A stretch of 64,000 bases of DNA. Origin: Escherichia phage PBECO4. Position numbers and translations under genes: made by a program. Under the pieces are notes generated by a model. That model did no database searches and was not told where the DNA came from. It saw only the letters and a list, made by a program, of their open reading frames with translations. Within the stretch, counting starts at the first letter, position 1. Each line of letters begins with the position of its first letter. This document shows positions 47,827 through 52,574 of the stretch, in pieces. The stretch lies in the sequence record KC295538, one strand, 5' to 3'.

Positions 47827-47916
<90 letters not shown>

Positions 47917-47928
47917 AGAAGTAAGATA

Positions 47929-48101
<173 letters not shown>

Positions 48102-48144
48102 ATTGACCTCGTTAGATTAAAACCCCCAGTTTTCTTCTTGAACC

Positions 48145-48204
<60 letters not shown>

Positions 48205-48261
48205 GTATTCTACAGCGACCATTTTAGCTAAAGGTGAACTGAGCATACTCGAAGTACCTCT

Positions 48262-48929
<668 letters not shown>

Positions 48930-49107: not shown

Positions 49108-49207
<100 letters not shown>

Positions 49208-49242
49208 ATATCAGTACTGAAAACTATTGTCCAGTAGTATTT

Positions 49243-49602
49243 TCAGAAAAAAACCTTATTCAACACTTTAATTATCACAGAATTTAATTCATGTGGGAAC
49301 ACATTTTCATATACTGTGCGTTTCTGAAATTCATCTTCTTCATCAGCACTTAGCTGGAAGGTAATGTATTGAGCATTTATACTATTTATTATATCACGTA
49401 AAGTGTTATTTGTCCTTTTTATTTCTTCAAATGATTCAAAAACAATTACATCGTCATTTATAATAAATGATTCACCATATTCATTGAAAATGCGAATTCC
49501 AGGATTATCTTTACACCAGTTATTGGTATGGTCTGTTGTTAATTTTGAATTCAAAAATGATTTAAGAAACTCTTCATACTTTGAAATGTCTTTAACACTC
49601 AT
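49243..49602 (-). CDS. hypothetical protein with EDEFQKRT motif (family FQ-like)
   Basis: Track ORF. Confidence 0.6.
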   Translation of the reverse strand: MSVKDISKYEEFLKSFLNSKLTTDHTNNWCKDNPGIRIFNEYGESFIINDDVIVFESFEEIKRTNNTLRDIINSINAQYITFQLSADEEDEFQKRTVYENVFPHELNSVIIKVLNKVFF

Positions 49603-49679
49603 ATCACCAACTTTAATTAAAAAAATGGATGGTGACGCTTTTAAACGCCGCTGTTAATTCAGCTTTATAACCACCCGTT

Positions 49680-49889
49680 TTAACTTACCTTTCGGCTACC
49701 TTGACGTGGGGCGTACAGGCTACTAAAAGCAACTTCTGTAAACATATTTCCACGCCTTACCCTTTTAAATAAAAGTCCATCCGGTTTTCCAGTTTGGTGA
49801 AGGACTTTCACCTCTAGTTTCAACCTGCTAGTCAAGTAATAATTGCCTATCGTCCAATTATCAAACCCGTCTAGGTTAACATTCACCAC
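49680..49889 (-). CDS. questionable 69-aa ORF inside GC-richer structured region (alternatively part of an ncRNA)
   Basis: AGGAAG SD-like upstream, but codon usage atypical for this genome. Confidence 0.3.
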   Translation of the reverse strand: MVNVNLDGFDNWTIGNYYLTSRLKLEVKVLHQTGKPDGLLFKRVRRGNMFTEVAFSSLYAPRQGSRKVS

Positions 49890-49964
49890 TTCCTAGAGTA
49901 CCAGAGATCTTGTTCTGGTTAGCATCGACGTAACTTACACCATATACGTCTGATTGTGGAATTC

Positions 49965-50002
<38 letters not shown>

Positions 50003-50059
50003 ACAAATCTGGACGTTCATCTTTAAACATATTAATATCCTCAGTACTGAATTATTTAG

Positions 50060-50473
<414 letters not shown>

Positions 50474-50483
50474 CTTTTTTTTT

Positions 50484-50645
<162 letters not shown>

Positions 50646-50649
<4 letters not shown>

Positions 50650-50810
50650 GTTCGTACCATTATTTCAATAAAGAACCACGGATACGCTTCATGGTTTATA
50701 AGTTTATCGTATTCTGCTGGGTCTGACATGATTTCCCAATGATACTTTCTCCAGTTACCGAAACCTGCATATCTAAAATTAATGTCATTCATCCATTCTT
50801 CATGCGTCAT
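50646..50810 (-). CDS. small protein, MTHEEW family (54 aa)
   Basis: MTHEEWMNDINFRYAGFGNW... Confidence 0.55.
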
Positions 50811-50814
50811 GGTT

Positions 50815-50916
<102 letters not shown>

Positions 50917-50920
50917 ATTT

Positions 50921-51036
<116 letters not shown>

Positions 51037-51053
51037 ATGTGATGTCCCATTAT

Positions 51054-51326
51054 TTATGATTCAGTTTGAGGATTAAATTTGATAAATTCATCTTTATGTT
51101 CATCTTCAAACGCAATATCTTCTACGTATTCAGGCCAAATCGTAGTGTCTCCTTGATAAAAGCGATAATTATCAAATACTGCACTACGCGTTCTTCCCTG
51201 TTCCCAGCCAATCGTACAGTCATGATATACATCCCCACTACTTGTACGAATACTAATGGTGTCTTGAGTTTCATAAAGAACTTCAATGCGTGTGTTACGA
51301 TTTACGTTGAATTTTTCAAAATGCAT
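51054..51326 (-). CDS. hypothetical protein (90 aa)
   Basis: Track ORF. Confidence 0.6.
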   Translation of the reverse strand: MHFEKFNVNRNTRIEVLYETQDTISIRTSSGDVYHDCTIGWEQGRTRSAVFDNYRFYQGDTTIWPEYVEDIAFEDEHKDEFIKFNPQTES

Positions 51327-51379
51327 AATATTATCCTCATCTAGAACCAGTGATAATCATTATATAATGAATTAATGAT

Positions 51380-51706
51380 TTATGCAAGTGTTTTAGATAC
51401 ACCGACACCAATAATTCCAGTGATATCGATATGGATATTGGCAAGTTGATTACTATCATATGGGTTTGTTTCTGTAATAACCAATGTTGTATCATTGACT
51501 AAAACCACAGTACCTTTTACACGATAACCATGTAGTAGTACTTGAACCTCATCTTCAGGTTTTAATGATTGAATAACTTCAAATAAAGTTGTTTCCATTT
51601 TTTGTATTCCTTGTTTAGTTTTGATTATTTGACTTTCTAAATGCCAGTTCGCATATAAACCAGGGTTTTCTGGTATCCAAAACATATGACCTGAAAAGAT
51701 TTTCAT
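51380..51706 (-). CDS. hypothetical protein (start uncertain, possibly internal ATG ~51598)
   Basis: Track ORF overlaps next gene by 92 nt. Confidence 0.5.
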   Translation of the reverse strand: MKIFSGHMFWIPENPGLYANWHLESQIIKTKQGIQKMETTLFEVIQSLKPEDEVQVLLHGYRVKGTVVLVNDTTLVITETNPYDSNQLANIHIDITGIIGVGVSKTLA

Positions 51707-51815
51707 CTCTTAATATATCATAATGTACCTGACGAATGCCATTCCCAAAGCAGTCATGTTCTTTATGCTGTTTGGACATCCATTCTTCGTGTGTCATTTT
51801 ATGTATCCAGTACAA
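51615..51815 (-). CDS. small protein, MTHEEW family
   Basis: MYWIHKMTHEEWMSKQ...FGNGIRQVHYDILRD. Confidence 0.6.
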   Translation of the reverse strand: MYWIHKMTHEEWMSKQHKEHDCFGNGIRQVHYDILRDENLFRSYVLDTRKPWFICELAFRKSNNQN

Positions 51816-52014
51816 TTAAGTGCTGCATCTCTTCTTTTGTAAAGAAAGCACTGTCATGAACAATAGAACCAGTCTTATCAACTACATAGTACAGGTTTCC
51901 ATATTGTTGAACATCAATTCCGTCAATTTCAATTCGTGGAAAATTTTGGACAATACAGTCTGCACCGAAAACCTCACCAAAAAAGTTTCCTGCTGGATTG
52001 ATAATGACTTTCAT
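51799..52014 (-). CDS. hypothetical protein (71 aa)
   Basis: Track ORF. Confidence 0.55.
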   Translation of the reverse strand: MKVIINPAGNFFGEVFGADCIVQNFPRIEIDGIDVQQYGNLYYVVDKTGSIVHDSAFFTKEEMQHLIVLDT

Positions 52015-52032
52015 ATTAAATCACCTTTATTG

Positions 52033-52114
<82 letters not shown>

Positions 52115-52138
52115 GTAATAACTATTATATTTATCTTA

Positions 52139-52333
52139 CTATTTTTTGTCTCTAATAGCAAGCTCGTAGATGAACCAGTGGTTGGAATCTTCGTCCAAAA
52201 CCAATGATTCGAACGTTTTTTTATCGTTCAAAACATCATAATGGCCTTGGCGTATACCAAATCCAAAATGATCATGTTTATATTTTAGTGACTCTATCCA
52301 TTCTTCATGTGTCATTTTATGTATCCAGTTCAA
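52139..52333 (-). CDS. small protein, MTHEEW family
   Basis: MNWIHKMTHEEWIESLKYKHDHFGFGIRQGHYDVLND. Confidence 0.6.
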   Translation of the reverse strand: MNWIHKMTHEEWIESLKYKHDHFGFGIRQGHYDVLNDKKTFESLVLDEDSNHWFIYELAIRDKK

Positions 52334-52394
52334 TTAAGTGTTTCATTTATTCTTCTGTAAAGAAAGCATTGCAATGGACAATGGAAAAGGTTAT

Positions 52395-52574
52395 TATATT
52401 TTTTTGTCTCTAACCGCAAGCTCATAGATGAACCAACGATTTCCATTCTCATCTAGTACATATGATTCGAACTTATATTTGTCTCGTAAAATATCGAAAT
52501 GACCATCAATAAATCCATTTCCAAACTGGTCATAACGTTTTTTCATCATTGCCATCCATTCTTCATGTGTCATC
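52395..52574 (-). CDS. small protein, MTHEEW family (59 aa)
   Basis: MTHEEWMAMMKKRYDQFGNGFIDGHFDILRD; below track size cut-off. Confidence 0.55.

Follow-up and report, generated by a model that had tools for sequence, protein, structure and literature searches.

An elaborately folded RNA in the tRNA cluster of a jumbo coliphage and its relatives across phage families

Introduction

To our knowledge, the small stable RNAs encoded in the tRNA cluster of phage T4 have remained unexplained for about fifty years. Ornate RNAs that are likewise unexplained, GOLLD and ROOL, lie beside phage tRNAs and have been studied by cryo-electron microscopy (PMC12286853), and theta ribozymes, which resemble that of hepatitis delta virus (HDV), adjoin phage tRNAs (PMC10879173). 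We report here on a segment of the tRNA cluster of Escherichia phage PBECO4 (KC295538), analysed within a stretch of 64,000 nucleotides that is referred to as the window, for which a first-pass annotation had proposed one structured non-coding RNA with its own promoter at about 49640-49960. The proposal of a promoter-bearing structured RNA within the tRNA cluster is backed by compensatory changes on the tRNA-sense strand, and the segment is real, but its true limits are 49627-49962 and it holds two elements rather than one. What had been missed is that these are independently mobile RNA modules, designated RNA A and RNA B, and that the larger, RNA A, belongs to a cross-family class of phage RNAs. 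RNA A represents a second RNA of phage tRNA clusters, unrelated to those of T4 and far more elaborately folded, in the same niche of at least six phage lineages.

Results

Fold and covariation of RNA A

The segment was searched by BLAST against 50,697 phage records, and its two parts were treated as separate RNAs because the first ~190 nt and the last ~135 nt differ in distribution. For the first part, RNA A, a covariance model (R1) was built from 11 alignable sequences and a hand-derived nested structure, and a search with this model found exactly one copy per phage locus, divergent copies scoring 75-91 bits. Helices were counted on a 17-sequence alignment (A3) produced with model R1. RNA A was found to consist of ten helices, comprising seven nested ones (H1, H2, H3, H4, PKb-S1, PKc-S1 and H7) and three pseudoknot pairings (PKa, PKb-S2 and PKc-S2), the latter not included in the model. 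Its elements in the window are as follows.

49775..49962, minus strand: RNA A, 188 nt, multi-pseudoknot, the window's member of the cross-family RNA class
49956..49959, minus strand: PKa 5' strand, CCAC, which pairs with GUGG at 49886-49889 in the H3 loop and anchors the 5' end
49924..49954, minus strand: H1, 9 bp with a bulged A; loop UAUGGUGUAAGU with conserved GGYG; 7 of 9 pairs with compensatory changes
49901..49918, minus strand: H2, 5-bp hairpin of varying sequence and length among phages; 3 of 5 pairs compensatory
49871..49896, minus strand: H3, 5-6 bp, CUAGG/CCUAG, whose loop carries the PKa 3' strand; 4 of 5 pairs compensatory, 100% paired
49863..49870, minus strand: conserved single-stranded joiner ACGGGUUU, with CGG invariant in the alignments
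49838..49862, minus strand: H4, 8 bp; conserved loop GGACGAUAGG with nearly invariant GACGAUA; 7 of 8 pairs compensatory
49814..49837, minus strand: PKb, compact H-type pseudoknot; S1 ACUUG/CAGGU with 2 compensatory pairs
49775..49812, minus strand: PKc, H-type pseudoknot at the 3' end; S1 GGUGA/UCACC

Across the 17 sequences, standard pairs were formed in 97.7% of the pair cells and compensatory (two-sided) changes were present in 31 of the 53 pairs. These measures were not reached by any of 500 shuffles, and only 20-39% of the cells were paired when the 3' partners were slid by 1-3 columns. The pseudoknot strands, absent as they were from model R1, were nonetheless 94-100% paired. An unbiased scan for three consecutive covarying pairs regained the same helices and essentially nothing besides, lengthening H3 by one pair. 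Because G-U pairs, which would be A-C mismatches on the opposite strand, are frequent on the tRNA-sense strand, the selected structure is that of an RNA of this strand. Taken together, RNA A is almost certainly a real family of structured non-coding RNAs.

The manner in which individual helices vary is also informative. The PKa pairing appears as CCAC/GUGG, as CCUCA/UGAGG in Klebsiella phage KP13-16, as GCAC/GUGC in Aeromonas phages and as CUACA/UGUAG in locus L009, and these four differing complementary pairs suggest the pairing with moderate strength. H2 is replaced by CCG...CGG in Shigella phage vB_SdyM_006 (SdyM006) and Proteus phage 1. In PKb, the S2 helix is formed between CUAG of the loop and CUAG at 49814-49817 and is 100% paired; KP13-16 and L019 have G-C in place of A-U, and RaK2 has G-U. 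The third loop of this pseudoknot is A-rich (UGAAA). In PKc, GUCC of the loop pairs with the terminal GGAC at 49775-49778 to form S2, which is 100% paired though outside the model and occurs across phages as GUCC/GGAC, AUCC/GGAU, ACCC/GGGU, GCCC/GGGC and UCCC/GGGA, and the connecting loop holds the hairpin H7 (CUGG/CCGG, 49781-49792). Both termini of RNA A are consequently folded into pseudoknots. Conservation is highest in unpaired nucleotides, namely GGYG in the loop of H1, the CGG joiner, GACGAUA in the H4 loop, AAA in a pseudoknot loop and AGAGGU. Two other sets of pairings were rejected: a stem closing the 5' and 3' ends (UCCA/UGGA), present in the minimum-energy fold, had no support in KP13-16, the Aeromonas phages or L009, and a long-range CGG/CCG pairing from RNAalifold, together with a UAG/CUG alternative, lacked compensatory support and competes with covarying helices.

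The features listed in the first-pass annotation, that is, a GC-richer segment, a promoter, several perfect hairpins and a single open reading frame (ORF), were each found again on re-examination. The G+C content is 0.42 in RNA A and 0.45 in RNA B, compared with 0.28 and 0.30 in the flanking ORFs and 0.337 in the window, and the perfect hairpins include GACGUA/UACGUC, CCAGA/UCUGG, CUAGG/CCUAG and AUAAUUG/CAAUUAU. Such hairpins and the folding energy alone prove nothing, because the z scores relative to shuffled sequence (-1.6 for the whole segment, -2.2 for RNA A and -1.8 for RNA B) are only mildly better than chance. It is because of covariation and cross-family conservation, not folding energy, that the structure can be said to exceed chance.

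Distribution and genomic setting of RNA A

The 121Q-group jumbo phages (Asteriusvirus) of Escherichia and Salmonella showed 97-99% identity to the window across the segment, and by this similarity the window is that of a 121Q-like jumbo coliphage of Asteriusvirus. RNA A was, in addition, 79-93% identical in phages that have no other nucleotide similarity to the query, and more divergent copies were present in further phages.

Alcyoneusvirus: Klebsiella phages K64-1 and RaK2 (79-93% group)
Bragavirus (Straboviridae): Proteus phages PM2 and Pm5461, Morganella phage Mm5 and Shigella phage vB_SdyM_006 (79-93% group)
Novosibvirus (Demerecviridae): Proteus phages 1 and 2 (79-93% group)
More divergent copies: Klebsiella phage KP13-16 (Stephanstirmvirinae), Aeromonas phages 65 and avDM6 (Ishigurovirus) and an uncultivated 120-kb virus

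In every case, RNA A was located inside the tRNA array and on the tRNA strand. It lies directly downstream of a tRNA in PM2, vB_SdyM_006, Proteus phage 1, KP13-16 and avDM6, a position taken in the window by the promoter instead, and it has its own promoter in the window, L013, L014 and phage EJP2. The fit to the neighboring tRNAs is close: in PM2, RNA A starts 1 nt past the CCA of tRNA-Gly, and tRNA-Asp is 9 nt past its last paired base; in Proteus phage 1, it occupies the gap between tRNA-Leu and tRNA-Ser; in Mm5, tRNA-Glu begins 6 nt past its end; and in KP13-16 and avDM6, it begins 3-5 nt past the CCA of a tRNA. Two observations on these loci may be added. Directly 3' of RNA A in KP13-16 (L006, 2616-2680) there is a remnant resembling a tRNA, in which GAGUUCGAAUCUC is T-arm-like and the end reads ...ACCA but which gives no full cloverleaf call, and in Mm5 (L020, PP397179.1) the tRNA strand given in GenBank is opposite to that called by ARAGORN, probably owing to an annotation error.

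Outside phages, a 19-base signature of RNA A had 0 matches among the genomes of 185,579 species of bacteria and archaea (one per species); its genuine occurrences were in five phage-like metagenome contigs and four IMG/VR contigs. BLAST with RNA A against 5,426 complete E. coli genomes and 72,556 plasmids gave no match, and host mimicry or a prophage origin was rejected on the lack of any match in these genomes and plasmids. RNA A thus far appears, from these searches, to be confined to lytic phages, namely those infecting Enterobacterales and, with more divergent copies, Aeromonas. A wider family was sought by pattern scans of IMG/VR, metagenomes and species genomes, which gave only close relatives and chance or coding matches (the latter being L017, L018, L028-L039 and L041-L043), and no further copy was found in the window or in the Kuravirus non-coding region described below.

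RNA B and its relatives

The second module, RNA B, and the sequences on its two sides are arranged as follows.

49762..49774, minus strand: AU-rich linker UUUUAUUUAAAAG between A and B
49627..49761, minus strand: RNA B, hairpin domain B1 followed by the B2 three-way junction and a U-run
49703..49761, minus strand: B1, with P1 (GGCGUGG/CCACGUC) around the stacked P2 (UACAG/CUGUA) and P3 (GUUGC/GUAGC)
49627..49702, minus strand: B2, a GAAA-capped hairpin and then a three-way junction with two short hairpins
49615..49626, minus strand: U-run AUUUUUUUAAUU directly 3' of the B2 closing stem, terminator-like or 3'-end-forming

In eight sequences of RNA B, 98.9% of the cells were paired and five pairs were compensatory, compared with 28-48% paired and zero compensatory changes in slid controls. 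The compensatory changes fall in P1 (L014 and KP13-7), in P3 (L014) and in B2 hairpins a and b (one pair each). Support for RNA B is weaker than that for RNA A because sequence diversity is limited, RNA B as a whole being restricted to Asteriusvirus and Alcyoneusvirus. B1 alone resembles a stretch of Kuravirus phages (83%, with P1 covarying) that lies within a region of ~790 nt free of coding sequences (CDSs). This region (L023, 1514-2302, Escherichia phage vB-EcoP-XT18), in which the B1-like domain is at 2001-2054, is G+C-rich, has no annotated CDS and gave no Rfam match. The 5' strand of B1 P1, GGCGUGG, can pair with a proximal ACGCC or the distal CCACGUC; both are kept in L014 and in Kuravirus, and only the distal one in KP13-7. 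The alternative pairings may represent a conformational switch or the coincidence of a near-repeat.

The closing stem of the B2 junction has 7 bp (GGGUGGU/ACCAUCC, 49670-49676/49627-49633) and is followed by A and U7. Paralogous B2-like junctions, with covarying closing stems (GGAUAGU/ACUAUCC and GGAUGAU/AUUAUCC), occur after tRNAs or before A in EJP2, K64-1 and L015, and a U-rich tract follows all B2 copies but one. The junction loops have an invariant UAUAAAKCUGAAUURACAG. We read B2, from these sequence features, as a putative terminator-like or 3'-end-forming module. A simple terminator scan does not call the B2 stem and U-run, because the stem closes a junction and not a hairpin. Termination at B2 would be incomplete, because genes and RNA A follow some copies without a new promoter, as in K64-1, where one B2 copy stands immediately upstream of RNA A with no promoter between.

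Separate gain and loss of the two modules

The combination of the two modules differs even among closely related phages. In phAPEC6, a near-identical Asteriusvirus, the promoter is followed by 43 nt of A and then directly by the downstream gene, without a complete module; in JNE01, the promoter is followed by B without A; and in EJP2, by A and then, 21 nt on, by tRNA-Ser. A promoter is inserted between A and B in K64-1 and RaK2, and in L014, a metagenome contig, A stands alone between two promoters and B is located elsewhere with its own promoter. The position of the linker between A and B is likewise taken in relatives by a promoter (K64-1, L015 and L014) or a tRNA (EJP2). The two modules, as judged from these arrangements, have been gained and lost independently among near-identical phages. 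L014 also contains, at 610-770 on the minus strand, a candidate RNA of ~160 nt between two promoters, with a long-range closing stem of ~20 bp (AUCAACGGUGAGUAACAUUG ... CAAUGUUACUCACCAUUGAU).

The 69-amino-acid ORF

49680..49889, minus strand: 69-aa ORF, spurious, with a GTG start, extending from the 3' half of A into the 5' half of B

This is the sole ORF of at least 30 amino acids (aa) on the minus strand of the segment, and it had already been doubted in the first-pass annotation, a doubt borne out by the disruption of its frame in homologues. If it were a real gene for a small protein, conservation of the segment would reflect coding constraint, and its presence in the window and the hypothetical protein that several GenBank records put across the region could be taken in its favor. 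However, the frame is interrupted by stops in K64-1 (two), RaK2 and L014 and runs out at the following tRNA in PM2, Proteus phage 1 and Mm5 (Bragavirus and Novosibvirus). The ORF moreover bridges two modules that are found apart, its start site is not conserved, and substitutions in the helices are compensatory rather than codon-periodic. On these sequence comparisons, the ORF is judged not to be a gene, and the chance that it is one is negligible. Hypothetical-protein CDSs over RNA A and/or B are found in the GenBank records of 121Q, SD-1_S14, JP4, WPEC3 and others, and these are probably false calls.

Promoter and downstream gene

49965..49993, minus strand: sigma-70-type promoter, TTGACT, 17 nt, TG-TAAAAT; 10/12 match, extended -10
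49243..49602, minus strand: 119-aa gene, a downstream neighbor and not part of the RNA, probably reached by read-through from the same promoter

The promoter (49993-49965, minus strand) has 0 mismatches to a phage-specific 29-nt motif, TTGAC-N9-CAGTACTG-N-TA-N-AAT, of which the window has 6 copies versus 0.15 expected. One copy, at 49233-49205, precedes the tRNA-Ser/Met/Asn operon, and the same motif precedes RNA A or B in L013, L014, L015, JNE01, EJP2 and phAPEC6. The promoter at 49965-49993 drives RNA A and RNA B and probably also the downstream 119-aa gene. In phAPEC6, a homologue of this gene is directly 3' of the promoter, the deletion having taken most of A and all of B.

As to the motif in general, copies are present at 49205-49233, 49965-49993, 50035-50063 and 50444-50472 (minus strand), among others, with the palindromic CAGTACTG between -35 and -10, and in K64-1-like and L014 contigs it likewise stands before RNAs and tRNAs. 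A phage or host regulator might use the palindrome as an operator.

Other features of the tRNA cluster in the window

A region at 47911-48447 (minus strand), between the ORF 48448..48663 and tRNA-Thr, is CDS-poor and G+C-richer; a strong sigma-70-like promoter lies at 48173-48145, and the palindrome TTCAGTACTGAA is present twice (48416-48427 and 48295-48306). It is conserved within Asteriusvirus only and may contain further non-coding RNAs. At 50838-50916 (minus strand), the Rfam tRNA model gives 29.3 bits, just at threshold, with no ARAGORN call; the T arm, acceptor stem and encoded CCA are normal and the central part is odd, and relatives have at this position a standard tRNA-Arg(tct) of different sequence. 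Five paralogous ORFs of 54-66 aa with the motif MTHEEWM...FG.G...H.D.L.D lie among the tRNA genes at 50485-52573 (minus strand).

Search for known RNA families

A covariance-model search with Rfam, one of the checks proposed in the first-pass annotation, returned only tRNAs, both in the window and in nine related loci (Rfam 15, 4227 models, gathering threshold). At E<=10 over 49400-50200, there were two noise matches elsewhere and none on the RNAs, and neither ARAGORN nor the Rfam tRNA and tmRNA models gave a call at 49627-49962. The possibility of an RNase P RNA, prompted by GGUGAAAGUCC and ACAGAA-like strings in RNA A, was rejected, since no RNase P model matched and GAAAGUCC, which is GACAACCC in PM2 and hence not conserved, covaries with the 3' end as a pseudoknot. 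Model R1 had no match by default in T4 69000-74000, and with filters off its best score was 10 bits, in a coding region away from rnaC and rnaD; homology to these two RNAs is ruled out by this covariance-model search. Full-text searches brought up no published description of RNA A, although PMC10690425 has 10,006 unnamed candidate viral RNAs, of which it could be one.

Discussion

Proposed role of RNA A

The explanation that we favor, with a probability of roughly 0.6 as a whole, is that RNA A is a stable trans-acting accessory RNA matured by tRNA-processing enzymes. RNase P would cut at the 5' end of the tRNA that follows RNA A, and RNase E would cut the conserved A/U spacer (CCA-A↓AUU) after the preceding tRNA, or, in the window, transcription would start at the 5' end of RNA A itself. 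Exonucleases would then trim the transcript to the terminal pseudoknots and halt there, so that a stable RNA would accumulate. On the evidence of its fold and position, RNA A is quite probably released as such a discrete stable RNA. It could further bind a host or phage protein in trans via the unpaired GGYG, the CGG joiner, GACGAUA and the A-rich pseudoknot loops. Phage tRNA loci have recently been recognized as acting in counter-defence against tRNA-cleaving immunity (PMC13096335). They are accessory islands that sustain translation and the supply of tRNA under host attack, and a protein-binding role in phage-host conflict or translation takeover is favored because RNA A is dispensable and mobile and lies within such counter-defence loci. 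That it is a trans-acting protein binder or decoy in phage-host conflict is put forward tentatively, as a suggestion from its sequence and setting.

Several points weigh against this explanation. The effective independent lineages are few, about 6-7, and the alignment used to count the nested helices had been fitted to the model, which introduces bias towards the structure. The per-sequence complementarity test for PKa alone was not significant. The high identity across families may reflect recent transfer as much as strong constraint. Both maturation and action in trans are inferred from sequence, and no partner protein or consistently co-occurring gene was found for RNA A. The RNase E site in the spacer is a putative one, placed by its fit to the RN↓WUU preference of the enzyme. 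Furthermore, A and B in the window lie between a promoter and a protein gene, and a local leader role may apply there.

Alternative explanations

Apart from a coding origin, dealt with above, three other explanations need to be weighed. The leader role just mentioned would make the segment a cis-acting 5' leader of the 119-aa gene (49243-49602), in which B1, perhaps with A, is an aptamer-like fold that controls the terminator-like B2 junction as an attenuator or riboswitch. This concerns mainly B, which always lies between the promoter (or A) and a protein gene with its junction and U-run just before the ribosome-binding site, and the two alternative 3' partners of the B1 P1 5' strand, both covarying in L014 and in Kuravirus, are switch-like. 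RNA A, however, is not a leader, because a tRNA or a promoter and not a gene follows it in Bragavirus, Novosibvirus, KP13-16, Ishigurovirus, EJP2 and L014. For B, the genes on the 3' side vary between phages, B2-like junctions also occur after tRNAs without any B1, and KP13-7 retains the distal P1 pairing only, so that this explanation appears unlikely. Slightly less likely still, and argued by analogy, is that RNA A could be a self-cleaving or catalytic RNA that cuts tRNA precursors at its own 5' edge and thereby frees the 3' end of the upstream tRNA. The start of RNA A 1-5 nt after a tRNA CCA in four lineages is in line with this, as is the pairing of its 5'-terminal nucleotides in a pseudoknot, seen also in ribozymes whose cleavage site is at the 5' edge; its size of ~190 nt, several pseudoknots and invariant unpaired nucleotides are likewise typical of ribozymes, and there is a precedent for ribozymes beside phage tRNAs (PMC10879173). 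Nevertheless, no Rfam ribozyme family, that of HDV included, matched RNA A even at E<=10, and in the helix order that covariation gives, nothing between the PKa and H3 strands corresponds to the HDV P3 and P4 hairpins. RNA A is also intact in the window, L013, L014 and EJP2, where transcription starts at its 5' end and cleavage at that edge would be pointless, and the host already matures the 3' ends of tRNAs with an encoded CCA.

A DNA-level element, such as a recombination or homing site or a replication or packaging signal, or the debris of a tRNA or intron, would be consistent with the horizontal exchange to which the high cross-family identity points, with the segD-like endonuclease gene near RNA A in vB_SdyM_006 and with the tRNA regions of T-even phages being hot spots of homing-endonuclease cutting and recombination (PMC13096335). 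But the pairing preserved by the compensatory changes is of the RNA type, rich in G-U, and is confined to the tRNA-sense strand, and the orientation of RNA A relative to the tRNAs is invariant, with boundaries that match tRNA ends or the transcription start. No signal of a tRNA, tmRNA or intron is present at RNA A, and debris would not be expected to retain 10 helices over 70-90% sequence divergence. This origin is therefore very improbable.

Significance

RNA A may, more speculatively, be the first member of a new functional class, that is, a large ribozyme or an RNA-only counter-defence decoy or sponge for a tRNA-directed nuclease or other immune or translation protein, carried as mobile cargo of tRNA islands; from the sequence comparisons, we regard this as rather doubtful. 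If it were true, such an RNA would be exchanged among unrelated lytic phages of Enterobacterales and Aeromonas. The function of RNA A is directly testable, because near-identical coliphages carry A only, B only or neither. Among its carriers are culturable phages of E. coli, Klebsiella, Proteus and Aeromonas. Given its size and how densely it is pseudoknotted, RNA A is also well suited to ribozyme assays and to the determination of its structure. In practical terms, a false hypothetical protein stands over RNA A in many GenBank records, and Rfam has no model for this RNA.

Comparison with known systems

B2 shares with intrinsic (rho-independent) terminators and the 3' ends of small RNAs a G+C-containing 7-bp stem with a U-run directly behind it, and it is placed after a tRNA or where a short promoter-driven non-coding unit ends; unlike these, the B2 stem closes a conserved three-way junction and not a simple hairpin. 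For RNA A, a likeness of architecture only is seen to tmRNA PK2-PK4 and the intergenic-region (IGR) internal ribosome entry site (IRES) of dicistroviruses, which have consecutive compact H-type pseudoknots with A-rich third loops. The triple-pseudoknot IGR IRES is ~190 nt, near the size of RNA A. RNA A differs from these RNAs in that it has no tRNA-like domain, tag reading frame, ARAGORN call or sequence relationship to them.

Theta ribozymes share with RNA A a location immediately 3' of a phage tRNA and a pseudoknot involving the 5' end. They are, however, minimal HDV folds of well under 100 nt, whereas RNA A has 188 nt and another helix order and is also found without an upstream tRNA. GOLLD and ROOL resemble RNA A in their elaborate pseudoknot-rich folds and in their occurrence in phages or prophages near tRNA genes without an associated protein gene. 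Their length is roughly 580-800 nt, 3-4 times that of RNA A. They are found mainly in Firmicutes and in rumen and lake metagenomes, and their Rfam models do not match RNA A (188 nt versus >500 nt).

The analogy with the stable RNAs of T4 drawn in the first-pass annotation holds for position and probable maturation but not for homology, the covariance model of RNA A having found nothing in the T4 tRNA region. Like RNA A, the T4 species 1 and 2 RNAs (rnaC and rnaD) lie in a phage tRNA cluster, on the tRNA strand and beside tRNAs, with which they are presumably matured, as proposed here for RNA A. Their lengths, 139 and 119 nt, are below that of RNA A, and the end of rnaC is formed by a T-arm and acceptor like those of a tRNA, which RNA A does not have. 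RNA A, unlike them, crosses families, being present in Straboviridae, Demerecviridae and the jumbo phages of Asteriusvirus and Alcyoneusvirus. The kind of RNA, that is, an unexplained structured RNA of a tRNA cluster, is already known, and RNA A adds to it a family that is unrelated to the T4 RNAs, GOLLD and ROOL and is more intricate than the T4 RNAs.

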